From the IMG/VR virus record IMGVR_UViG_2922727739_000003, positions 25,210 through 89,209 of that record: a stretch of 64,000 nucleotides of DNA, one strand, 5' to 3'. Below, one piece after another: positions 22,665 through 56,052 of this stretch. The first letter of the stretch is position 1, and each line of letters begins with the position of its first letter. The DNA is from a virus. The position numbers and the translations under genes were made by a program. A model generated the notes under the pieces. It worked only from the letters and a program-made list of their open reading frames with translations, had not been told where the DNA came from and did no database searches.

Positions 22665-23516
22665 CTAAGAGTTAATCGTGGTTTTATCTTTTGTGTTTCT
22701 TATAATTGTGCATATCCATACAGTAGCAATTGATATGTAAGTCAATGCAAGAATAAGTAAAACAATATCAGCATTGTATAATTTAAGTGTAGTGTATGCG
22801 TCGAACATTGAGTGTGTAAGAATAGCACACCATATCCTTTTTGTAATAAACATTACCAATGAAAAACATAAACCCATTAGACCTATCGTAACTGTAATAT
22901 CTAAATTGATCCATCCATTTGAATAACTAAATGTATGAAGCCAACCAAATATAAATGAGCTTATAAGAAATGATGATATCAATAATGCAATCTTTGTCCC
23001 CTTACTTTTGCTGAACCTTCTAAAGCAAAAAGTAAATATCAAATATATAATAAAAATACTTGAATATCTCCAAATTTCCTCAGCGCCAGCAATAATGTCT
23101 GTAAAAAGACTATAAATAACTTCATTTGAAGCCAAAGCAGTTAATCCCTGCGGGTTTTCATTTTTAACAAACATACCACCAATTAAATTAACTATTGCTG
23201 CTATAAAAACAGGTGCCGATAAGGGGAAAAATACATAATAAATTAAGAAGTTCATTATCTTGTTTTTAACATTTAAATTACTCTTTGGTAATCTAAAATA
23301 TAAATTTTTAGACACCCAGACAGAAAACAAAAATGAAAATACAGACATAGTTATTAGTAAATTAGTAGATCTGATACCAAAACGATGTTTTAATATAATT
23401 AATATTGGAGTTGACACAAAAATTATAGAATTAATTAATACAATTACTTTATTATTGTTGGTAAATGTATCTACTATCCCCTCCAATAAAGCACCTATCT
23501 TCTCTTTTTTCTGCAC
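22665..23516 (-). CDS. CPBP/CAAX (Abi-family) intramembrane metalloprotease
   Basis: Multi-TM; AEEIWR, FGWLH and HSMFD motifs. Confidence 0.8.
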   Translation of the reverse strand: MQKKEKIGALLEGIVDTFTNNNKVIVLINSIIFVSTPILIILKHRFGIRSTNLLITMSVFSFLFSVWVSKNLYFRLPKSNLNVKNKIMNFLIYYVFFPLSAPVFIAAIVNLIGGMFVKNENPQGLTALASNEVIYSLFTDIIAGAEEIWRYSSIFIIYLIFTFCFRRFSKSKGTKIALLISSFLISSFIFGWLHTFSYSNGWINLDITVTIGLMGLCFSLVMFITKRIWCAILTHSMFDAYTTLKLYNADIVLLILALTYISIATVWICTIIRNTKDKTTINS

Positions 23517-26821: not shown

Positions 26822-26833
26822 GAACGTTTGTTC
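26822..26833. promoter_or_regulatory. LexA/DinR (SOS) box
   Basis: GAAC-GTTT-GTTC matches the Firmicute GAAC-N4-GTTC consensus; about 10 bp upstream of the YhjD-like ORF. Confidence 0.75.
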
Positions 26834-34361: not shown

Positions 34362-37197
34362 TTACTTACTTACTGGAACCCACTTCATTACCTTTACTTC
34401 TTTTAGTTCGACTTCATCACAATCAACGTCTTCTTCATACTCCCACGGGCTTTCATCTTGCATTTCTGTAGCCCCCTCAGAATAATGTGTCTGATAGAAC
34501 TTACCCTGATGTTCGAATATAATGTTATGATGAATACTCCAGCGAGATGTATCTGTGATTTCATCGACCAAGGCAGTATCTGGCAAGTCTAATTCATTAA
34601 TTAAATAGTTTTTCTTAAACTTCATAGTTGCTCACTCCATATCCTTTACAATGTTCGCACTCAATTAATGGCTTATTGATAACTTTCATAAGCCCATCTA
34701 AAAATTTTTGTATATTCTGTTTCAAATCTTCTTCATTTTTTCCTGCAAACGGTTCTATGACTGGGTAACGGTCATATGACTTTGGAGAAGTTTCATATAC
34801 CTTTACTGTTCTAGATCTTGTATATCTTGTCTCGTATTTTGGTTTACGCTTTCCTACGTTAACTCTATATTCTTCTGGTTCATGCTCGATATTTTTACTG
34901 ACAGTAAAACAAAAGTCGTAGTCACTTGTAATGGTTGCCCACCTTGGATCAATATTTGCTTTTATGTATTTGCGAACAATATTGTAGCTTTCTTGTCTTG
35001 ATAGTGTGCATGGTCGAGTTGATAACAGCACAGGATGTGTAATGATTTGATCTAAAACTGAGTGTTGTAGATTGTAGTCGCTTCGGACAATTTCAAAATC
35101 TGAGTCTTCTACGATGACATTCAACTCAAACTCTACTTCTACCAACTTTGGTTCAGTTAATTCATATCTCAGATCATATAGACCATAAACTGACTCATAC
35201 TGTCCTTCTTCACTAAAATCTTGAGACCGAAGCACTTTGGGCAATCCAGTACTATAATGTGCTTCTTTAAGTTCATATCTAGTATTGATTCGTTCTGAAG
35301 GCAATTTCTTTTGGATCAATTCTGGAACCTCTTTAATCTCAAACCAATCTGCTTTAAATGTCGGAACTGGCTTAACGCCGTCGAATATAAGCTCTTTAAT
35401 TTTAGTGTAATGATACGAACCATTATTTATGTTATCTGATACATACACCCTACTTTTAGTTTTAATCACAATCAATTTGAGCTTGTCGTCATGTGTTGAT
35501 TTCTTATTACTCAATTACCTCTCTCCTTTTCATATCAAATTTACATTTGCTCATCATCATAATCTTGAGGATTTAATAGATAATCATTGACTATCTCTTT
35601 TAGCTGTTTAATCTTTTCTCTGACAGTTTCTTCTGAGTCCTCAAAACTTGATATGAATTCAAATCCAGTTGGCGTATAAATTGTATAATATAATGTACTC
35701 CAACCACCCAAGGACTTTTCACGTGTTGCTTGCAACTTAAATCCTTTATAGTTAACTTTCATTTAATTATTTATTCCTTCCACTCAAGAGCTATGCAGCC
35801 ATAATAATTGCTTCCTGTCAAAGAGTGTCCATCTGGAACACTTGACTTCAACTTTGAAATGGCATCCTCAGGATCGTTTAATTTGACTGCTTGGTCATAA
35901 ACTGTGAAATGCACCTTTTTTGAAATTGAATCTTTACTCGGTTTGTAACTACCTACTTTTTTACAAGCAAGACGGTAATAACTCTGATCGCCATATTTCT
36001 TTATGCCATCGAATAAATTACCTTGGTATGCACCCAAATGCTTTGTACTTCGTCCTTCACAATCTCCTTCTGTTGAAAATTCCCAAATACCATTAACATC
36101 GAAATGTTCAGACTCCATTACTTTTAATAGGGCAGCTTTTTCCTCTACTTCTTTACGCAGCCTATCCATTTCTTCATATATAGTCATTGCAATCCTCCTT
36201 TCGGTAAAAGTCCTCTTTTATTTGCTATCATTAGTGTTATAATTCTTTAAGTAACAATCGAACATGGGAGGTTATTATGGATAAGCATTTGGTTTTAACT
36301 GAATTACTAATGGCTATACATGGAGTAAATAGTTTGGAGAAACATGATGAATTCCCTGAATTAATACTTGATAACCTTTGGAACGCTGTCAAAGAATTAT
36401 GTGGCATTAAAGCTGAAGGTCGCTTTAGCAACAAAGTCTTAGAATATGTACTAGATGAACTAAAACGTATTGATACTGCTAATGAAGATCCCTATGAAGA
36501 CCTTATTGAATACTTAACTACTTCAAAAATTGAAATGAACGGTGGTTACTAGCACCTTACGGTGCTTTTTTTTTGATAAAGTTTCTATTTGATCAGATTC
36601 AAATAAATAGAACAAGCTAGAATAAAAGCTACAATATCGTCGATAGTTCTAGGCGTAATTGTGCCATAAAACATTTTTTCTGCAATCGTCCATAGAAGAC
36701 CTATCACGCAGTAAATTACCAATACATTAACAAAATCAATGATAAAAAGAAGTGTGCCAGTAAAAAAGTTAACCAAAAATATAAACACCCCTTTCTAAGC
36801 AATTAGCATTGTTGCTTCTATTTACTTCAACTAAAATTGCGATTTTAGCGTCTTTTATTCTTCACGTTCATAATTTATTTTTGCATTATTCGTTTCTTCC
36901 AATTCCCACTCGACAACTCCATCAACATTAAATAACTCATGGCCGATCTGACCAACAATATCATTTCCATGCTGTAGTTCTTCTTCGTCGAAAATTATGT
37001 ATCCTTTAATCTCTACTTTCCGCATTTTTTAAATCCTCACCTTGAGACTTCATTTCTTCTACTTTTGTGGCTATCATACGGGTTCCACTAGCCAAAACAT
37101 AAAAAATTTCTTCCAAATCTTCAAGAGAGTCAATAAATCCCTCAGCTTCTAGATTAACACGATCATTTTCATCAATATTGAGAATAATTTGTTTCAA
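34362..37197 (-). other. Hypothetical ORFs (34362-34625, 34615-35514, 35541-35762, 35771-36187, 36585-36788, 37006-37197)
   Basis: ORF track, SD motifs. Confidence 0.65.
36277..36552 (+). CDS. Lone plus-strand hypothetical protein with its own expression signals
   Basis: Extended -10 TGtTATAAT upstream, SD GGGAGG, terminator agcaccttacggtgctttttttt right after the stop. Confidence 0.7.
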   Translation: MDKHLVLTELLMAIHGVNSLEKHDEFPELILDNLWNAVKELCGIKAEGRFSNKVLEYVLDELKRIDTANEDPYEDLIEYLTTSKIEMNGGY

Positions 37198-47992: not shown

Positions 47993-48021
47993 AATATAAC
48001 ATGTTAAACTATACAAGTCAA
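47993..48021 (-). promoter_or_regulatory. SigA-type promoter upstream of the tRNA
   Basis: TTGACT-17 bp-TATATT with an extended TG. Confidence 0.7.
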
Positions 48022-48121
48022 TACATTTCATTATTTTTAATTGTATTTTTGTACACTTCATTTCTTTCTATCTGTAGAGTATGTAATCAGCCGAACCATA
48101 CGCTCGGCAATGGCTATGCAA

Positions 48122-48496
48122 CTAAGACAAGGCTAAGTGTAGCAAATTTGAATATTTATTTTTTTCATACAGGCTATATAGTATTTCTGGATCTGTTACT
48201 TTTAATCTAGCTAACTTAAAGCCATCGACTTTTTCTTGGCATAATTTTTCAAGTGCCATGATATTATTATCATTATAATCAACAATAAACTCACTCTTGT
48301 CCTTATACCCTTCTTCATCGATCAACTGTTTTCTTTTTTCTGAGAGATAAATATATTCAGAGCCAGGATTACCATTACAAAATAAATACATTTTTTGTCT
48401 GTCAGAGTCACTTCTCAAAAGGAACTCAATTTTTTTAATTATTATTGTGGCGCTTTTAGGTATATCAAGCCGATAAATTAGTTCGTCTTGCTGCAT
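48122..48496 (-). CDS. Hypothetical protein
   Basis: ORF track; SD AAGGAG; candidate own promoter upstream. Confidence 0.6.
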   Translation of the reverse strand: MQQDELIYRLDIPKSATIIIKKIEFLLRSDSDRQKMYLFCNGNPGSEYIYLSEKRKQLIDEEGYKDKSEFIVDYNDNNIMALEKLCQEKVDGFKLARLKVTDPEILYSLYEKNKYSNLLHLALS

Positions 48497-48654
48497 AGCA
48501 TTATCTCCTTGCTGTCGAATTCTATACTTTTATTATACGAGATTACTATAATTAGGCAACAACTTTACACACCATGTCTAAATATATTGACTTAATCAAT
48601 ATACTGGAAAAACGCCCATATAGTGTGTCACTTTTTGTCGAATCGTTTATTCAG

Positions 48655-48666
48655 GAACTTATGTTC
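48655..48666. promoter_or_regulatory. LexA/DinR (SOS) box
   Basis: GAAC-TTAT-GTTC(G), intergenic between the LytTR gene end and 48122-48496. Confidence 0.6.
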
Positions 48667-48727
48667 GTATTTATTTTGATTATACTACTGCCAAAAGGCA
48701 TAAGCAATATAAATCCAAAAATAACTC

Positions 48728-49141
48728 TTATTTTTTATTGTTTCTTAGTTTTTGCAGCATTTTTTTCACTGTCGCTAAATGTACCGCAGCTATCTCTACA
48801 AAGCTTTTTTTGTTTTTATCAAAGTATATCTCATAGACCTTTTCATCAATTTCATCAATCTTAGTAACGTCAGCCATGCTCCCTCTACCTACTCTTACGA
48901 AGCCTTCAATATTCTCAAATAAACGCATCGTCTGTTCCGTTCTTGTTTCATCGATATACTCGCCCATGTCTGTTATGTATACAATTCTTGTTTGCCCAGT
49001 TCTTCCACTTTTCTTTTCAGTTCTAAATCCTTGAATTTCAGATACTGGCAGCATAATTGCTACTTCGTCTATTTTGTCACCTATCTTTTTAACCACTTTT
49101 ATAGTATCCGTTGATTTCAATTTTTTCACCTCATAATTCAT
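48728..49141 (-). CDS. Stand-alone LytTR DNA-binding domain protein (no receiver domain); likely TTG start at 49120
   Basis: GFVRVGRGSMADVTKIDEID resembles the LytTR F.R.HRS.IVN...I motif; about 130 aa; last gene of the agr-like operon. Confidence 0.65.
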   Translation of the reverse strand: MNYEVKKLKSTDTIKVVKKIGDKIDEVAIMLPVSEIQGFRTEKKSGRTGQTRIVYITDMGEYIDETRTEQTMRLFENIEGFVRVGRGSMADVTKIDEIDEKVYEIYFDKNKKSFVEIAAVHLATVKKMLQKLRNNKK

Positions 49142-49184
49142 TTGGTGTCTCGCCTCCCAAAAGAAGAACGAGACACCAAATATC

Positions 49185-49307
49185 TTATTTCAATTCTTCT
49201 GGCACTGCTTCTCCATGGATCAACGTCCAACTAGCAGTGCTTACTACTGTTACAGCCAGCAGAGAGCAAAAACTACCAACAATCAGCATAAGTTTGTTCA
49301 ATTTCAT
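49185..49307 (-). CDS. agrD: AgrD-like cyclic-lactone autoinducing-peptide precursor (40 aa, absent from the ORF track)
   Basis: MKLNKLMLIVGSFCSLLAVTVVSTASWTLIHGEAVPEELK*: amphipathic leader, S-W-T-L-I-H core aligning with clostridial C-x4-H-Q-P, P-E-E-L-K tail; the ATG overlaps the agrB TGA (ATGA). Confidence 0.88.
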   Translation of the reverse strand: MKLNKLMLIVGSFCSLLAVTVVSTASWTLIHGEAVPEELK

Positions 49308-49840
49308 AACTTTTCACCTCCTCTCAAGCGTATCAAGAGGAGACTTTGTACTAGCGCTGCTAAATTCAAAACTGGAATATTAATCATATATATTAGCGTA
49401 ACTAATATTAAAGATATAATTTTAAACCATTTAAAATTTTCTGGTTTCACTCTTGTTTGCTGTTCGATTTTACTCGGTGCATACAACATTACAAGTATTA
49501 TACTCACTAGATACATAGTAAAAGAATAAGTCTCTAAATAATTGCCACACAATGCAATTAAAATTATAACAAGTGATGAAAAAACTATACACATTTCTGC
49601 TGATTTAAAATGAAACCCACCTGAAAACACTCTTACTGATGAAAAACCAATTAGTGCAAGTATTGCTTCTTTGGTAATCCCCAGCAACATCGATGCTATT
49701 AATACAATAAATATTGGTATTGTATTCGATATAATAAACTTAATTGTGTACCTTATTATTTGTTGTGATGGTAATTCATCAGGATATTTTCTTTTAGCTG
49801 CAATACTCCATTTATCAGCTAACTGATTAATCATATTCAT
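49304..49840 (-). CDS. agrB: AgrB-family peptide-processing membrane endopeptidase
   Basis: RVFSGGFHFKSAEMC carries His and Cys 7 residues apart, as in S. aureus AgrB H77/C84; LYAPS motif; multi-TM. Confidence 0.92.
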   Translation of the reverse strand: MNMINQLADKWSIAAKRKYPDELPSQQIIRYTIKFIISNTIPIFIVLIASMLLGITKEAILALIGFSSVRVFSGGFHFKSAEMCIVFSSLVIILIALCGNYLETYSFTMYLVSIILVMLYAPSKIEQQTRVKPENFKWFKIISLILVTLIYMINIPVLNLAALVQSLLLIRLRGGEKL

Positions 49841-50468
49841 TTTTAATTTCCTTTCTTCTTTCTATAAGTATCAGTGAAACAAATATTATTATCCAAAAAA
49901 CTACGCTAATGGTCATATTATCGAAAGTTGGCTTTGTCATTACAGACACTCCGATCAGAGAAATAATGAATAATACAACATTAGAGAAATTAATTTTGAA
50001 TTTCAAAGTATATTGATATGGCAATGTTGTAAAGAAAACAGATCGTTTTCTTAATGCAAGACTTATTAAGATCATTATTGTGTCACCTAAAAATTGAATC
50101 AACATTCCATAATCTTTTGTTGTGGTAAAAAAATCAATATTAAGTGTACTTGCAAGCACAAGCGCCGTTAATGTTTGTAAAATCATCTGCACTAAAAAAC
50201 TGATTCCCGATATTCTCAATGACGAAAGGGGAGATAGTTTAAACAAAATTACGAGAAATATTATCAATAATAACAAATTAGCAATAGGCGCAATTCTATT
50301 CGGTAGGTCGTATTCCACATATAGGAAGGTGCCTACAGAAATACACAGACTTGAAACAATAAACTGAATCCAGTAATCCCTAAGTTTTATAGAATACATA
50401 CCAAATCCAAAAATAAAAATTGCCAAACCATCCAACATTGAAAATATTATGTATTTAGCTGTCTCCAT
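49827..50468 (-). CDS. Multi-TM protein resembling an AgrC sensor domain, with no histidine-kinase domain
   Basis: About 213 aa from ATG 50468 (SD GAGG); 6-7 hydrophobic segments; ends RRKEIKNEYD with no H-box or HATPase domain; overlaps the agrB start. Confidence 0.6.
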   Translation of the reverse strand: METAKYIIFSMLDGLAIFIFGFGMYSIKLRDYWIQFIVSSLCISVGTFLYVEYDLPNRIAPIANLLLLIIFLVILFKLSPLSSLRISGISFLVQMILQTLTALVLASTLNIDFFTTTKDYGMLIQFLGDTIMILISLALRKRSVFFTTLPYQYTLKFKINFSNVVLFIISLIGVSVMTKPTFDNMTISVVFWIIIFVSLILIERRKEIKNEYD

Positions 50469-50515
50469 GTTCGCCCTCACGTTCTTATAATTGAATATAA
50501 TGAATTTGTACACTA

Positions 50516-50544
50516 AATATATCATCTGTAATTATTTATGTCAA
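50516..50544 (-). promoter_or_regulatory. SigA-type promoter of the agr-like operon
   Basis: TTGACA-17 bp-TATATT directly after the mrpR-like terminator. Confidence 0.8.
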
Positions 50545-50557
50545 CACAATTTTCCAT

Positions 50558-50592
50558 AAAAAAAAGTAGAATAAGAAAAACTTATTCTACTT
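50558..50592 (-). terminator. Intrinsic terminator at the end of the MrpR-like gene
   Basis: 12-bp stem aagtagaataag/cttattctactt with a long U-tract on the minus strand; overlaps the stop codon. Confidence 0.85.
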
Positions 50593-51556
50593 CATAAATT
50601 CTTTTTATGGTCTCAACATTAAGGAAATCTTGAGTATACATTGTGCTGTTGATTATGCCACCATCACGCAATCCAACATTAAATTGCTTACATATCTTAT
50701 GGATATCTGAACGATCTAAAGTTCTTTTATTTTGATCAAAGTATGCTTTTCTTGCCATTTCTAACATGCCTGAGTTTCTTATATCAATTGGAGTTAAGTT
50801 TGGTTTGTTTAATTTTTCACCAAATTTGGTAATAACGAATGTTATTAACGATTGTTTAACTTCCTCTCCTCTTGTGCTCTTTATTATATAATCATTATCT
50901 TTCAATTTAGAAGTATCTTTTCGTAGGCTACCTTCACCAAAATTAGATTTATATACCTCTTCTTGATCTGCTGCTAAAAGAGCTTTGATCAAAAAATCAC
51001 TAACAATGATCTCTCTTTCTGTTGTTTCATAGCGACCTACATTAGTCAGTTTTATTTTATTATGCTCTTTATCAATATTCTCCACTTTTAAAGTTCTTAT
51101 CTCAGAACTATTCCTACCTAATATACCTTCAAATATTGATAGTATTATTGCTATATCCCTATAGCTATCTAACTCTGATAAGGCATCTTCTAAGTGATCT
51201 TTTCGTATTAATGTTTGCTGTGGTACAAATTTTTCAAAGTCGTCTTTCCCTTTCATTGCAGCAAGTGGATTCATTTTATCTTTCCTAAGACCTTCACCAC
51301 TTGCCCACTCAACATATTTTCTGAGAATTGACCCATAGTTCATTGCACTACTTAACTTAGTGGGAGCCAAGAGGTAAATAACCTCTTCAAATTCACTTAA
51401 TGTAAAATCATAAAGATCTTTACCTAATCTCATTTCTACTCTACTTGCGCGCTTTAGCTTTCCTTCGTAGTTCTTACGAGTGTTTTCTCTAAATTCGCTT
51501 AAAAATCTTTTTTTGATCTCTGGATTATATAGGCTATCCCCATATATATTATTCAA
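50582..51556 (-). CDS. mrpR: MrpR/YopR(SroF)-like master repressor with tyrosine-recombinase fold
   Basis: 324 aa; YNPEIKKRFL...KDLYDFTLSEFEE, EGILGRNSSEIRTLK and LTPIDIRNSGM (degenerate R..HxxR motifs); directly downstream of a YopQ-like gene, as in SPbeta. Confidence 0.75.
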   Translation of the reverse strand: MNNIYGDSLYNPEIKKRFLSEFRENTRKNYEGKLKRASRVEMRLGKDLYDFTLSEFEEVIYLLAPTKLSSAMNYGSILRKYVEWASGEGLRKDKMNPLAAMKGKDDFEKFVPQQTLIRKDHLEDALSELDSYRDIAIILSIFEGILGRNSSEIRTLKVENIDKEHNKIKLTNVGRYETTEREIIVSDFLIKALLAADQEEVYKSNFGEGSLRKDTSKLKDNDYIIKSTRGEEVKQSLITFVITKFGEKLNKPNLTPIDIRNSGMLEMARKAYFDQNKRTLDRSDIHKICKQFNVGLRDGGIINSTMYTQDFLNVETIKRIYEVE

Positions 51557-51560
51557 TTTG

Positions 51561-52895
51561 TTACACCTCTTTGATTATATTTTCGAAATGTTTTAGTATG
51601 TCCACTTGAATGCGAGTAGACGAATAAGCCCTTTTAGCCTCTAATAAATCTATCAGTGTTTTATCGTTACTTAAATCAAGATCATCAATTATTTTATTTA
51701 ACTCCTTAGGACTGATATTTTGATTATCTTTTTGATACATTTTATAAGCGATCACTGTGTATCCCAAAAACATTAAAGGGTGATTTATATAGCTCTTATC
51801 ATACTTTTCTCTATTTTCCAAAAAAGCATCCACATATAGGCTTATCAAAATACCAAAATATTTCACAAGATAGTGTGATACATTTTGATAATCAAGATAC
51901 GTCTGAGGATTAAACGTTCTTTCAATTGCTAAATTTAAGATACTGAATGTTGTTAATTGTCCCACAGCAGTATTTGGCTTAGTTGCAGAGGCAATTCGAA
52001 TACCTTTAAGTTCGCTGTCCTGGTTGGTTTGTAATTCTTTTACGACAGATGCAGATCGCTCAGTAGAAGAAAGTTCTTTCTTTCTGTCTTTATTTAGAAT
52101 GTTAATTGTATTTATCTGACCAAAAAATTTAGAGGCGGTTTGCTGATCATAAGTTCTAATCGATAGTTCAAAATTGAAATCCAAATCATTTTTCTCATTC
52201 ATTGCTTTGACAGTAGCCTGCAAACGGTGAAAACCATCCAATATACTTATAGTAGCATCTTTGTTTATAATTAATTGTCCAAACTCGTCTTCTTTCGGAA
52301 TCCAAGTTACAGGTTCTGATTCAAAGTTATAAACGTTAAATCTTATGGTATCAGTTAAATAATCATTCGCAACAAGTTTATTAGCAATGGTTCTCACAGA
52401 AGATTGATTTACAATAGGCGTTTCAATAATTCCATCGTTGCGATTGCCTTTATATTTTAATCCTCTTTGAGATCTTGGATCGTATATTATCATCTGCGAT
52501 TCGAACATCTTGTTTAAAAGTTTGGCTGATATCTTTGATGAATATGCTTTTTCGTCAATTTGTATTGCATTAAAAGTCAAAGGTAAACTAATTGTTTCAC
52601 TAACAAATTCTATGGCTATACTTTCTTTGGCTTCTCTAATTTCAGTCGCTGTAAAATGTTCGAGTGGATCTATACCACCAAAAACACTATTTATGCAGTC
52701 AGTAAAGACACATAATAAGGGTAGGCTAATCTCTTCAATACTTTTCTTTTTTAAAACAATCTCGTTTAATGTTCCGTAAGGAACTCCTAGTGAGTTTAAT
52801 CTATCATTTACACTGAGTATCTTTTTTCTATTTGTCTTATGTTCGTCAAGTATTTCAGTAATTATCTTTTCAACTTCTCTACGATCAGTTTTCAA
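51561..52895 (-). CDS. YopQ(SroE)-like DGQHR/DndB-related protein
   Basis: ILDGFHRL motif, 444 aa, synteny with the MrpR-like gene. Confidence 0.7.
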   Translation of the reverse strand: MKTDRREVEKIITEILDEHKTNRKKILSVNDRLNSLGVPYGTLNEIVLKKKSIEEISLPLLCVFTDCINSVFGGIDPLEHFTATEIREAKESIAIEFVSETISLPLTFNAIQIDEKAYSSKISAKLLNKMFESQMIIYDPRSQRGLKYKGNRNDGIIETPIVNQSSVRTIANKLVANDYLTDTIRFNVYNFESEPVTWIPKEDEFGQLIINKDATISILDGFHRLQATVKAMNEKNDLDFNFELSIRTYDQQTASKFFGQINTINILNKDRKKELSSTERSASVVKELQTNQDSELKGIRIASATKPNTAVGQLTTFSILNLAIERTFNPQTYLDYQNVSHYLVKYFGILISLYVDAFLENREKYDKSYINHPLMFLGYTVIAYKMYQKDNQNISPKELNKIIDDLDLSNDKTLIDLLEAKRAYSSTRIQVDILKHFENIIKEV

Positions 52896-52953
52896 ATGTG
52901 ATACACTCCTTTATTAAAGAATTATAACACATAAATATAATAAATATACACGA

Positions 52954-53736
52954 TCATTTTTTCCTAAGTTTATCTAACAAATTGTGATTATTACCCTCCA
53001 AAACCAGAACTTTAGTCACATCTTTTAAGTCTTTTGTATTCATTAATTCGATTTTATTTAGAATTTCATTCTTTATTTTATTCTCACAAGTGATGCAGAA
53101 TTTCTTCCCTTCAATAAAAGGAAACTGCGAATAACATCTTTCGTATTCACATACTTTTTCCCCAACTTTCTTTGGGGAAAATTCTGCCTTTTTCATCGCT
53201 TCAGTCCAACTCAATCCTTTATTGTTCATTGCACTAGAAGATGGTTTGAGTTTCAAACTATCATATTCTACTTTTGTTGGAATGTAACCTATTTTTTTTA
53301 TGGAATTTTTTAAATCAACAATCATCGATTCAACGCTTGTATATTTGTTTTTCAAATTCACTTCAGCAGCTTTACATATTTTCTCTATTCCAAAGCGATC
53401 AGATATATAGTCCCAAACAGGCTCAAAATTACCAGCTTCATAATCCATTTTATCTACATATCCGTTTAATACGTTTAATAATTTGAAATTGCTGATTGCT
53501 TTAATTCTGTTTTTTTCTAATAAGTATTCTTCTTTTGTTGGAATACCAGCTTTTTTCAAGAAATCTTTAAAATTTGTTTTTGCTTTCCTATTGTAGGTAT
53601 CCCATGTAGTAGTTTTTTCTTTGTCTCTATAAAAATCAAAGAGTTCTACTGTGAGGTATCCTCCTGCTTGCTTGGCCGCCAACTTAGCTTCATCTATATA
53701 CTTATTTTCAAGTTCCATATTCATATTACAATTCAC
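52954..53736 (-). CDS. Protein with homing-endonuclease-associated-type repeats and a C-terminal Cys cluster
   Basis: Repeated IPTKEEY / IPTKVEY...W.EA...A units; CEYERC and FCITC. Confidence 0.45.
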   Translation of the reverse strand: MNCNMNMELENKYIDEAKLAAKQAGGYLTVELFDFYRDKEKTTTWDTYNRKAKTNFKDFLKKAGIPTKEEYLLEKNRIKAISNFKLLNVLNGYVDKMDYEAGNFEPVWDYISDRFGIEKICKAAEVNLKNKYTSVESMIVDLKNSIKKIGYIPTKVEYDSLKLKPSSSAMNNKGLSWTEAMKKAEFSPKKVGEKVCEYERCYSQFPFIEGKKFCITCENKIKNEILNKIELMNTKDLKDVTKVLVLEGNNHNLLDKLRKK

Positions 53737-54275
53737 CTCTCAACAAAGTACCTGTTGGTCATATACCAAGCCTTACCCTTCTCAATATCAACCATACCCT
53801 TCTTGCTATCCAAGAATACAATATCCCCACACTCTTTGCAGCCCCATTTATTCCTCTTGTACGCTGACTCCTCTATATATGAGGCTCCACATTTACATTC
53901 TACCTGAATCAATACCTTGTGCTGGCTATACGCATCTGCTAATTGCTCTTTACTCTTACTCGCTACTGTTGGTTGCTGTATTGCTGCTACATATTCCCTT
54001 TGCTCTGAAAATTCATTATGTACTTTAAAATCTGCTACAAGCTCAGGATTTAATCCAAAGTATTCTTTACCTACTGTGGTTACATATTTACTACCTACAC
54101 GATAAGATTCTATCCAGTCCTGTATTTGTTTGATGGATAGGTTTACACTTCCTTTAATACCGCTATTTAGCGTGTAAGTCATAACAAAGTAAAGATCAGT
54201 TCTCATAATGCACCCCCATCTAAATATACTATAAGCGATAATTATTATCAAAGAGTAAAAAAATAAGCGTAGCAT
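53733..54275 (-). CDS. Hypothetical Zn-ribbon protein
   Basis: CKCG...CKECG; likely start MRTDLY. Confidence 0.55.
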   Translation of the reverse strand: MLRLFFYSLIIIIAYSIFRWGCIMRTDLYFVMTYTLNSGIKGSVNLSIKQIQDWIESYRVGSKYVTTVGKEYFGLNPELVADFKVHNEFSEQREYVAAIQQPTVASKSKEQLADAYSQHKVLIQVECKCGASYIEESAYKRNKWGCKECGDIVFLDSKKGMVDIEKGKAWYMTNRYFVER

Positions 54276-54317
54276 ATACTATGCTCGCTTTTCAGCAGAT
54301 CATTATTTACTCTTCGG

Positions 54318-54923
54318 TTACACTTTTGTTAATAAAATATCTTTCTCAAACTCATTAACAATAATCATAAGTCTTATGAGATTCTTATTCTTCTCTTCTT
54401 TGTATTTCTTTATATGTAATTTTATCGCTGCTAAAGCTAAATTGAAATACTCTTTGCCATAATCATTATGAATATTCAATAAATAATATTTTGTTGCGTC
54501 TGCGGTAATCTTGCTCCTATATCCTTCACCCTTCATCATAGAACAAAAATCAGAAATGTGAGATAGAGCTGTTCCTCTGTGCATTCCTGACAATAGTGAA
54601 ATGGAATTTAACGCAGAACTAAGATCTATCTCATTATGATAGAACTTTCTAGAATATTCGTAAGCGGTCTCAATCATTAGTCTTGTTATTATTTTTCCCA
54701 TTATTTTATATCACTCCTCATTGTTGTGTTCTTCTATCCATTTGGCTATATCTAGGTTGGTTTTAACAACTTTATTTTTCTTTGTGTCCCATATGCGGAA
54801 ACCGTTTGCCATAAAGTTATTTAAATCGTTCGCTTCTTCTGCTTCAATATTTACAAATTTCCATGTCTTCAGGTTATGCTCTTTATCATAGGCTGCTAAT
54901 TTCATTAAACTATATCTTTTCAT
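54318..54923 (-). other. Two hypothetical ORFs (54318-54701, 54711-54923) heading the operon that leads to the yopQ/mrpR-like genes
   Basis: ORF track, SD motifs. Confidence 0.6.
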
Positions 54924-55043
54924 AGTAATATGTCCTCTAAAGTTGTATTTTTTACTGTTATTTCATCAAACAATCTGCTAGAATAAAATGACAAATACAC
55001 CCTTCGCCCAAAATCATAAGGAGTGTATTTGTCTTGTTGTGTA

Positions 55044-55102
55044 GTGACACGAAATTCGTATCACCTGAGTTATATTATAGGGTTTATCCAATTTCGTGTC
55101 AA
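55044..55102 (-). promoter_or_regulatory. Consensus SigA promoter with overlapping operator-like inverted repeats
   Basis: TTGACA (55097-55102)-17 bp-TATAAT (55074-55079); 21-bp near-palindrome GTGACACGAAATTCGTATCAC (55044-55064); half-site ATTTCGTGTCA over the -35. Confidence 0.8.
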
Positions 55103-55133
55103 CCCCTATTTGTAATTAATGGAGGAAATGTGT

Positions 55134-55343
55134 ATGTCTCGGGTTGACATCAATCTTAAAGCTATACTTAATAAATTCGAAATAAGCGAAAGGGAAATTT
55201 CTAGAAGAACAGGTATCAGACAGGCTACAATCAATAACATGTGCAATAATGATGTTAAGCAAATTTCTTTAAAAAATATTTCTCTCTTGTGTGATGAACT
55301 AGGAATTGATATTTCAGAGTTGCTTACTTTAAATAGAAAATAA
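55134..55343 (+). CDS. XRE/Cro-family HTH transcription regulator
   Basis: ISEREISRRTGIRQATINNMCN...ISELL; divergent from the promoter above. Confidence 0.88.
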   Translation: MSRVDINLKAILNKFEISEREISRRTGIRQATINNMCNNDVKQISLKNISLLCDELGIDISELLTLNRK

Positions 55344-55364
55344 AAGAAGGATATCCCTTCTTTT
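55342..55364. terminator. Bidirectional terminator between convergent xre and mazF
   Basis: aaaagaagg-atatc-ccttctttt. Confidence 0.75.
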
Positions 55365-55382
55365 ATTTCACTCTCATCCTAC

Positions 55383-55763
55383 TTAGTTGATCCCCGCTAC
55401 TACTTTATATGTACTGTTCAAACTTGGTTCATATTCATGTGGAATACTTGCAACCTTACATGCCAAATCTTTTTTGTCTAAAACTCTCATCTGTTCAAAC
55501 AATGCAACTGAATGTCTATCGAATCCACATTTATCTTTGTCTAAAAGTACATGAGTTGGAAGATTTGCTTTTTGAGTCTGTGCGGATAAAGGGACTACCA
55601 TAACTACTGGAGAATATTTATTTCCAATATTGTTACTCATAACAATTACAGGTCTCTGTCCCTTTTGAATGTTTGTTTTTACTCCATTAGTTTCTCCTAG
55701 GTTTGCAATCCACACATCCATTTTTTTAATTTCTCTCGTTACACTTTCTACTGCTACCGCCAT
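55383..55763 (-). CDS. mazF: MazF/PemK (EndoA-like) mRNA interferase, no adjacent antitoxin
   Basis: QKGQRPVIVMSNNIGNKYSP...PLSAQ...KANLPTHV...FEQMRVLDK aligns with B. subtilis EndoA; catalytic Arg kept, catalytic Thr replaced by Ser. Confidence 0.9.
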   Translation of the reverse strand: MAVAVESVTREIKKMDVWIANLGETNGVKTNIQKGQRPVIVMSNNIGNKYSPVVMVVPLSAQTQKANLPTHVLLDKDKCGFDRHSVALFEQMRVLDKKDLACKVASIPHEYEPSLNSTYKVVAGIN

Positions 55764-55934
55764 TATGTACACGCTCCTTTTAATTGAAACTTGTTTATGT
55801 TGTTCTTATCGCTATCTTCGTATTATTCCTATTATATATAATTACAAATTCTACTTTTAACTCTAACTATGTTTCTCATTTATTTACTCTCTATATTGGT
55901 AATTATACAAATAAAAATAATAAAATACAATACG

Positions 55935-55946
55935 GAACGTTTGTTC
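55935..55946. promoter_or_regulatory. LexA/DinR (SOS) box between divergent mazF and rsfA-like genes
   Basis: GAAC-GTTT-GTTC, identical to the box at 26822. Confidence 0.75.
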
Positions 55947-56052
55947 TGTCAAGAAATTTAAACACCATGTATATATTCAGTCTTTTACTGCATAAATAAC
56001 TTGACATCTGGATATACATAGAAATAAGGAATATTTATTGGGAGGAATAGAG

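Follow-up and report, generated by a model that had tools for sequence, protein, structure and literature searches.

A kinase-less Agr-type peptide cassette directly behind the MrpR-like repressor gene of a Paenibacillus provirus

The 64,000-nucleotide stretch analysed here (the window) covers bases 25210-89209 of the IMG/VR provirus record IMGVR_UViG_2922727739_000003 (164,715 base pairs (bp); CheckV completeness 100%), has a G+C content of about 33% and carries nearly all of its genes on the minus strand. Directly behind a gene for an MrpR-type master repressor it encodes a four-gene cassette, consisting of a membrane protein, an AgrB-type peptidase, an AgrD-type peptide precursor and a stand-alone LytTR DNA-binding protein, with neither a histidine kinase nor a receiver domain, whose position is fixed over deep divergence among related prophages. 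The explanation that we prefer, to which as a whole we give about an even chance, is that the stretch is the lysis-lysogeny control region of an SPbeta-like prophage of the Paenibacillus polymyxa group and that the cassette is a built-in part of this region, serving peptide-density signalling. The names of identical or near-identical database proteins place the provirus in the P. polymyxa / P. peoriae group. A near-identity DNA search with positions 48000-56000 against isolated phages gave no match, and no isolated phage is close in DNA; the relatives compared were seven other IMG/VR proviruses, the genome of P. dendrobii and 401 sampled Paenibacillaceae genomes. No paper that connects an Agr cassette with MrpR or with the control of lysogeny came up in our full-text literature searches.

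On the minus strand the order is yopQ-like gene, mrpR-like gene, terminator, sigma-A promoter, membrane protein, AgrB, AgrD and LytTR (Table 1), and the succession of yopQ-like and mrpR-like genes, strong terminator and promoter that the first-pass annotation of this DNA had described was found in all its parts. The same annotation called the operon agr-like, a name that overstates the likeness, as the provirus holds no match to an AgrC-type ATPase domain (PF14501) or to a receiver domain (Response_reg). The AgrB-type protein carries SGGFH-x6-C, kept in 38 of 40 homologous loci; we take the SGGxH-x6-C motif of AgrB to hold the catalytic His and Cys. The 40-residue precursor scores 16.3 bits (E 0.008) against TIGR04223, under the cut-off of 19. 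Its length, its position, the VPEEL tail and its strict conservation are those to be expected of an AgrD precursor. The reading frame is real, because four proviruses share the peptide at 100% identity while the genes around it are 86-94% identical, because the variable codons in these four are all synonymous (four against none), and because 14 prophage copies repeat the core ASWT[LIV][ILV] and the tail (E)VPEE[LM]K. By analogy with Agr peptides, its product should be a five-residue serine-lactone ring, SWTLI, and the natural variants of the predicted ring are SWTLI, SWTLV, SWTIL, SWTVI and SWTIV. The stem-loop between agrD and the LytTR gene has its counterpart, different in sequence, at the same place in every clade. 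All four cassette genes are intact in the 14 prophage copies, and each of these genes has more synonymous than non-synonymous variable codons.

Elsewhere in the window (22665-23516, minus strand) there is a gene for a 283-residue membrane protein with a CAAX/Rce1-like protease domain (Pfam 1.1e-6). In Staphylococcus aureus, MroQ, a protease of the CAAX/Rce1 family, aids the maturation of the Agr peptide, and the window's protein could trim the leader of the phage peptide.

The assignment of the fourth gene is, to judge from its structural model, firm despite a marginal Pfam score. The AlphaFold model has a mean predicted local distance difference test score (pLDDT) of 93.2, its best matches in the PDB are the LytTR domain of AgrA (4xqj; E 1.7e-5, probability 1.0) and ComE, and a search of the ESM Atlas returned small stand-alone LytTR proteins; tblastn against isolated phages gave no match. 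The membrane protein probably starts at the ATG at 50468, which has a ribosome-binding site and at which the PHROG match begins. Its model has a pLDDT of 83.8, and fold searches returned generic helical bundles only (Foldseek best E 0.39; VIA-align best Z 8.0, to a peroxin), a result that does not demonstrate a new fold; look-alikes without a name were all that the ESM Atlas returned. When 1.84 billion representative proteins were searched with HMMER, 65 relatives came up, all of 121-229 residues and none fused to a kinase. Because no homologue carries a kinase and all are about as long as this protein or shorter, its identity as a truncated AgrC was rejected, and the system is, to judge from these sequences, genuinely kinase-less rather than truncated.

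In the product of the repressor gene upstream both MrpR domains lie above the Pfam cut-off of 27 bits, while a Phage_integrase match to the same protein reaches 14.5 bits, under its own cut-off. The protein is 26% identical to the product of SPbeta yopR (E 1.2e-21) and 26-30% identical to the versions of SPbeta, Tsamsa, PBC2, Sundance, Perkons and other large Bacillales siphoviruses. The yopQ-like gene stands directly upstream in the same operon, with a gap of 4 bp, and its product is 28% identical to that of SPbeta yopQ (E 5.5e-33). The region thus shares with the MrpR/YopQ module of SPbeta both MrpR domains and the adjacent YopQ, but has no homologues of yopM, yopN, yopO or yopP upstream.

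The block from the MazF-like gene to an open reading frame (ORF) of 124 codons beyond the cassette is colinear in three close proviruses (84-90% DNA identity), in four distant ones (membrane protein 56-58% identical, MrpR 59-63%) and in P. dendrobii, where membrane protein and MrpR are both about 37.5% identical; over the seven other IMG/VR proviruses together the ranges are 56-89% and 59-93%. The P. dendrobii locus was found by a single-protein scan, and a scan of the genome contigs with the membrane-protein profile gave no match. The cassette lies directly behind mrpR in eight IMG/VR proviruses and six further Paenibacillaceae genomes; in the five of these six other than P. dendrobii the distance from mrpR is 116-137 bp. 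A census of MrpR in the 401 genomes yielded 41 places in 38 genomes, and the 11 kilobases (kb) around each were inspected. At six of these 41 loci the same cassette starts 109-137 bp past mrpR (type 1); at three the order is AgrB, membrane protein, AgrD, LytTR, directly after mrpR (type 2); at two the cassette lies about 2.2 kb downstream (type 3); and at one a 164-residue LytTR-type protein stands alone directly after mrpR. At least one of the two type-3 loci also has a LytTR-type protein, of 165 residues, directly after mrpR. Counted together, proteins of 164 or 165 residues stand directly after mrpR at three loci. The LytTR-like part of these proteins is C-terminal and some of their loci are without adjoining AgrB and AgrD; such arrangements suggest that MrpR may have a LytTR partner more widely than it has the peptide cassette. 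In the 4 kb that follow the 41 mrpR genes, 11 matches to the membrane-protein family were observed against about 0.03 expected by chance, a figure calculated from about 450 such matches in about 2.5 gigabases, although common descent inflates these counts of adjacency.

Maximum-likelihood analysis of the membrane protein unites all type-1 copies in one clade (support 100/100) on a long branch, so that the type-1 cassette looks as if it had been captured once, in ancient times, and had since diverged together with the phage. Type 3 falls within chromosomal forms, and type 2 and the copy of phage Abouo fall on separate long branches of unsure placement; these other layouts point to further, separate associations. 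Synteny, codon patterns and tree together support the view that the type-1 cassette is an intact, vertically inherited part of the lysogeny-control region under purifying selection.

A parallel comes from Abouo, one of the three phages (with Davies and Emery) in which Hargreaves et al. 2014 (PMC3901668) described agr cassettes whose membrane proteins are without a kinase ATPase domain; the LytTR gene was not recognised there and no function was tested. Abouo gp44-gp47 match the cassette in gene content and gene order (membrane protein, AgrB, AgrD, small LytTR), again with no kinase, and lie in the lysogeny region of a temperate phage, between integrase and repressor genes. Against the profiles built here, the Abouo membrane protein scores 1.1e-31 and the LytTR protein 7e-12. 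Abouo is, however, an unrelated 45-kb Brevibacillus phage with a CI/Cro-type switch instead of MrpR, its AgrB is only about 28% identical and its membrane protein occupies a long separate branch. The public label of gp47, 'peptidase', and the matching PHROG label look wrong, the protein having a Pfam LytTR match of 9.7e-7, above the cut-off.

Sites of the LexA type, GAAC-N4-GTTC, occur only three times in the whole provirus, all of them intergenic (48655-48666, 55935-55946 and 26822-26833), where 0.59 would be expected by chance in the window and none of 100 shuffles reached three. Two of the three flank the module, one upstream of the MazF-like gene and the other just past the LytTR gene, and the cassette sits between the repressor gene and a conserved promoter with a LexA box. 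That promoter is followed by a direct repeat whose conserved form in four clades is TCGACA-N5-(T/C)GACA, and a second promoter leads to the 124-codon ORF, which follows the cassette in 13 of 14 type-1 loci and gave no match in Pfam, in PHROG or in tblastn against isolated phages. We know of no RecA cleavage of MrpR-type repressors, and for this reason an SOS-controlled factor beside the repressor is plausible as the trigger of induction; the product of the 124-codon ORF is a candidate for such a factor.

Put together, these elements suggest a mechanism. AgrB would cut and cyclise the 40-residue AgrD into a small serine-lactone, with the predicted ring SWTLI, to be released by infected or lysogenic cells. 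The membrane protein, a putative peptide sensor or LytTR anchor, would sense the peptide without phosphorylation and hold or release the LytTR protein, in the manner of the membrane inhibitors of HdrRM and other LytTR regulatory systems. The LytTR protein would then act on phage DNA, the best candidate site being the TCGACA-N5-GACA repeat that stands just past the LexA-box promoter ahead of the 124-codon ORF, and peptide density would in this way modulate SOS-driven induction or the establishment of lysogeny. An effect of the cassette on lysis-lysogeny or on induction is something that we purely infer. The known kinds on which this combination draws are Agr peptide production, LytTR regulators paired with a membrane partner, and phage peptide signalling. 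Arbitrium is the only well-worked-out case of phages communicating by a peptide that they encode themselves; if the cassette does steer lysogeny or induction, it would be the second case of this kind, with no component related to those of the first, and Agr-type cyclic peptides could be sensed without a histidine kinase, which would bear equally on the chromosomal copies of the cassette in the host family. We consider it rather unlikely, although worth stating, that a second, independent and phosphorylation-free family of phage peptide communication is at work, running from peptide to membrane protein to LytTR to TCGACA-N5-GACA, by which lysogen density would gate SOS induction or lysogeny establishment in the MrpR phages of Paenibacillaceae, the CI-type Brevibacillus phages having recruited the device separately. 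The system lends itself to direct testing, as P. polymyxa is genetically tractable, the peptide can be synthesised and the natural ring variants allow signal specificity to be addressed.

Several observations weigh against a role of the cassette in lysogeny control. It is absent within 5.5 kb of mrpR at 28 or 29 of the 41 loci (about 70%), and so it is not needed for MrpR-type lysogeny. Its promoter, which begins 19 bp past the terminator, looks constitutive and terminator-insulated, as in a moron; some 12 bp separate the end of the terminator's T-run from the -35, so that activator repeats would find no space upstream. A DNA target of the LytTR protein was not identified: the TCGACA-N5 repeat has a period of 11 bp, which is unusual for LytTR proteins, and a search for LytTR-type 9-bp direct repeats (at most one mismatch, 20-22 bp apart) found none in the intergenic regions of the module, the sole find over all intergenic regions being a 22-bp tandem array next to the integrase. 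The sensor role of the membrane protein is a guess, because its model has no informative structural match. Finally, the membrane-protein family matched 257 of the 401 sampled Paenibacillaceae genomes (64%), often in several copies and mostly away from mrpR, and some chromosomal copies encode peptide cores close to that of the phage, such as STASWTFV. At all 30 top-scoring loci AgrB directly follows the membrane-protein gene, and 24 of the 30 have no MrpR within 1.5 kb; in the loci without mrpR that were inspected AgrD is present in most and a small LytTR-like ORF in many, while in one group this ORF is missing. Other mobile elements may carry some of these copies, one of which has FtsK-like and relaxase-like neighbours.

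Because the membrane-protein family is so widespread in the host family, lysogenic conversion and cross-talk with the host are live rivals to our explanation. The cassette would then be cargo, expressed from the prophage to add to or jam the peptide signal in kinase-less Agr circuits of the host, or to act on other host genes, with no part in the lysis-lysogeny decision. A strong promoter of its own between two terminator/promoter boundaries, the abundance of the family in the hosts with AgrB adjoining it, the resemblance between chromosomal and phage peptide cores and the nesting of one mrpR-linked layout inside chromosomal forms would all fit such a function, and in P. polymyxa Agr peptides are known to control antibiotic production (PMC12180512). 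Yet cargo is usually variable among related phages, whereas this cassette keeps its place at identities as low as about 37%; its copies group in one phage-specific clade with a long branch; the site lies between the master repressor and a LexA-controlled promoter and not at a genome end or in a cargo island; and a homologous cassette is found inside the lysogeny module of the unrelated phage Abouo. We hold cargo to be a serious but doubtful alternative, and favour a regulatory role in the phage because the position holds over deep divergence, the clade is specific to phages and Abouo offers a parallel.

A related scheme, in which the phage makes the peptide and a host histidine kinase senses it, for instance a canonical AgrC such as that of the paenibacillin locus, with the 213-residue protein as an export, immunity or maturation helper, seems improbable. 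The use of host partners by phage agr genes has been suggested (Hargreaves 2014, PMC3901668), P. polymyxa does have a canonical agrABCD locus (PMC13700820) and the membrane protein shows no recognisable sensor fold; but a LytTR protein always comes with the cassette and would serve no purpose if it had no cognate input, the membrane protein has diverged in step with AgrB and AgrD, and the peptide of the host, ICFGLF, is a Cys thiolactone and does not resemble the phage core (PMC12180512). Several sampled loci also repeat the four-gene arrangement with no kinase gene in the 1.5-kb flanks, the wider context of which was not checked. Least credible of all is that the cassette is a functionless, decaying remnant of a canonical agr locus whose kinase and receiver parts were lost. 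The missing kinase and receiver domains, the marginal Pfam score of the LytTR protein and the AgrD score under its cut-off could be read as decay, but conservation already contradicts it: the genes are intact in 14 prophage copies with synonymous changes exceeding non-synonymous ones, AgrB has kept its catalytic His and Cys, the LytTR model is confident and AgrA-like, and none of the 65 homologues of the membrane protein is a longer, kinase-fused form.

The first-pass annotation had proposed that this lineage may use a cyclic Agr peptide rather than arbitrium, having seen no RRNPP or tetratricopeptide repeat (TPR) receptor and no aimP-like gene; the results bear this reading out only in part. 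The absence was borne out by the search of the full 164,715-bp provirus record that it had called for, in which models of AimR (PF22871, NF038310) and AimP (NF033802) gave no match at E<=10 and 20 mid-sized proteins belonged to no TPR or RRNPP-type family. PF22871 likewise had no match at E<=1 in the seven related proviruses or the whole P. dendrobii genome (SPbeta, as positive control, scored 1.1e-110). The idea of a swap is not supported: PF22871 matched none of the 401 sampled Paenibacillaceae genomes at E<=1e-5, and AimR had no match in the MrpR-bearing phages Perkons, Sundance and Tsamsa, in which no agr cassette is annotated within 7 kb of mrpR, the whole records not having been searched for one. 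To judge from these searches, the absence of arbitrium is a property of the sampled host family and not a sign of exchange in this lineage; as AimR is unmatched across that family nothing has visibly been replaced, another point against our explanation. Mutual exclusivity of agr cassettes and arbitrium, which had been put forward as a test, does hold, but trivially, for the same reason, and was dropped as uninformative.

The cassette is arbitrium-like only loosely, as phage-encoded peptide signalling. Like aimR-aimP-aimX of SPbeta and phi3T, which informs lysis-lysogeny and induction, it is a phage-encoded secreted-peptide system next to the yopM-R/mrpR operon; MrpR was defined by Kohm et al. 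2023 (PMC10516654), who found that it binds the aimR promoter in SPbeta. The components, however, are non-homologous, with a linear hexapeptide, Opp uptake and a cytoplasmic TPR receptor on one side and a predicted cyclic lactone, a membrane protein and a LytTR protein on the other, and the cassette is downstream of mrpR whereas arbitrium is upstream of the operon. With canonical agr loci (agrBDCA of S. aureus; the paenibacillin agrABCD of P. polymyxa, whose thiolactone ICFGLF controls antibiotic synthesis; PMC12180512, PMC13700820) it shares the catalytic His and Cys of AgrB, the AgrA-like LytTR output fold and an AgrD-type precursor whose leader is hydrophobic, whose candidate ring has five residues and whose VPEEL tail is charged, but it has no AgrC histidine kinase, no receiver domain and no autoinduction repeats upstream of the promoter, and the ring residue is Ser instead of Cys. 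A small soluble LytTR regulator with a co-transcribed membrane protein and no phosphorelay recalls the LytTR regulatory systems HdrRM and BrsRM of Streptococcus mutans, pairs of LytTR regulator and membrane inhibitor without AgrBD (Zou et al. 2018, PMC6193735). Neither AgrB nor AgrD belongs to those systems, which have no known signal, and the 9-bp direct repeats that define them, spaced 12 bp apart at 4-11 bp upstream of the operon -35, are absent here because the terminator abuts the -35. HdrM belongs to DUF2154 (PMC6193735), whereas the membrane protein described here matches no Pfam family, DUF2154 included.

Further elements of the module concern the control of the repressor operon. The ORFs preceding yopQ, said by the first-pass annotation to be unrelated and under an XRE-type switch, indeed have no tblastn similarity to SPbeta yopM-P, though they occupy the same position, and no family match above a curated cut-off, and the operon promoter is divergent from the gene of a helix-turn-helix (HTH) protein. 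This promoter is bracketed by an 11-bp inverted repeat, GACACGAAATT / AATTTCGTGTC, and just past its -10 a palindrome, ACGAA..TTCGT, a candidate operator, stands at the same place in all clades. The leader hairpin folds in seven sequences from four clades, with stem letters that differ between clades while pairing stays, which argues for compensatory change; the hairpin is a candidate attenuator, or possibly part of a short regulatory RNA that precedes the repressor operon. In SPbeta MrpR binds a repeated operator (SPBRE) in early promoters. No such operator could be assigned here by a k-mer search, in which only a shared promoter word, AAATATAATGAAA, surfaced. It is present in at least nine intergenic regions of the provirus, with a reverse copy after the cassette promoter, and was rejected as an operator because this frequent intergenic word is a shared promoter -10 region.

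Table 1. Features of the lysogeny module, in the direction of the minus strand; positions are those of the window
Feature	Position	Strand	Remarks
LexA (Cheo) box GAACGTTTGTTC	55935-55946	.	Next to a TTGACA hexamer, upstream of the MazF-like gene; kept in related clades
MazF/PemK-like toxin gene	55383-55772	-	PemK_toxin 6.6e-20; edge of the lysogeny module; syntenic in all related proviruses and P. dendrobii
HTH protein, Cro/CI-type	55119-55343	+	74 residues; HTH_26 7.3e-13, HTH_3 5.5e-9; divergent from the repressor operon
Operon promoter TTGACA-17-TATAAT	55074-55102	-	12/12 consensus; within the bracketed region 55044-55102
Leader hairpin, terminator-like, then AUUUUAUUCUA	54981-55033	-	U-rich tail; operon ending in mrpR
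Four ORFs preceding yopQ	52954-54923	-	70, 127, 180 and 260 residues; same operon; syntenic in relatives
yopQ-like gene	51561-52895	-	444 residues; Pfam DndB 3.8e-12; phrog_5732 2e-85
mrpR (yopR)-like master repressor gene	50582-51556	-	324 residues; MrpR_N_CB (PF22822) 6e-23, MrpR_C_cat (PF22823) 4.9e-12
Intrinsic terminator ending the repressor operon	50563-50593	-	13-bp stem + T8; conserved in all clades
Cassette promoter TTGACA-17-TATATT	50516-50544	-	TG extension; 11/12 matches; -35 and -10 kept in all clades
Membrane protein	49827-50468	-	213 residues; seven predicted helices; phrog_15604 3.4e-10; no Pfam match
AgrB-type peptidase	49304-49840	-	178 residues; Pfam AgrB (PF04647) 9.2e-24; overlaps the end of the membrane-protein gene
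AgrD-type precursor	49185-49307	-	40 residues, ending ...STASWTLIHGEAVPEELK; overlaps the AgrB stop codon
Stem-loop between agrD and the LytTR gene	49141-49181	-	Ribosome-binding site in the loop
Stand-alone LytTR DNA-binding protein	48728-49141	-	137 residues; no receiver domain; Pfam LytTR 22.7 bits, cut-off 22.6
Promoter TTGCTT-17-TATAAT	48679-48706	-	Kept in four clades including P. dendrobii
LexA box GAACATAAGTTC	48655-48666	-	Directly behind the -10 of the 48679-48706 promoter; kept in four clades
Direct repeat TCGACA-N5-TGACAC	48625-48642	-	Follows the LexA box
Second promoter	48532-48559	-	Leads to the ORF below
Conserved ORF	3' of the second promoter, region 48122-48559	-	124 residues

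Other features of the provirus lie apart from the module. Positions 1-1287 of the record, at its left end, hold a gene for an HflX-type GTPase and are probably host flank. A full-length homologue of Gad1 (anti-Gabija; Pfam 1.9e-120) is encoded at 34615-35514 of the window, minus strand. At provirus positions 108580-108650 (83371-83440 when counted relative to the window, outside which the analysis placed them) there are three to four tandem 22-bp repeats with TTGGGAGTGG, which lie near a 225-residue ORF and a tyrosine integrase gene (provirus 109388-110497) and may be arm-type or iteron-like sites. Perfect TAAAA-N6-TTTTA palindromes number 55 in the provirus record.

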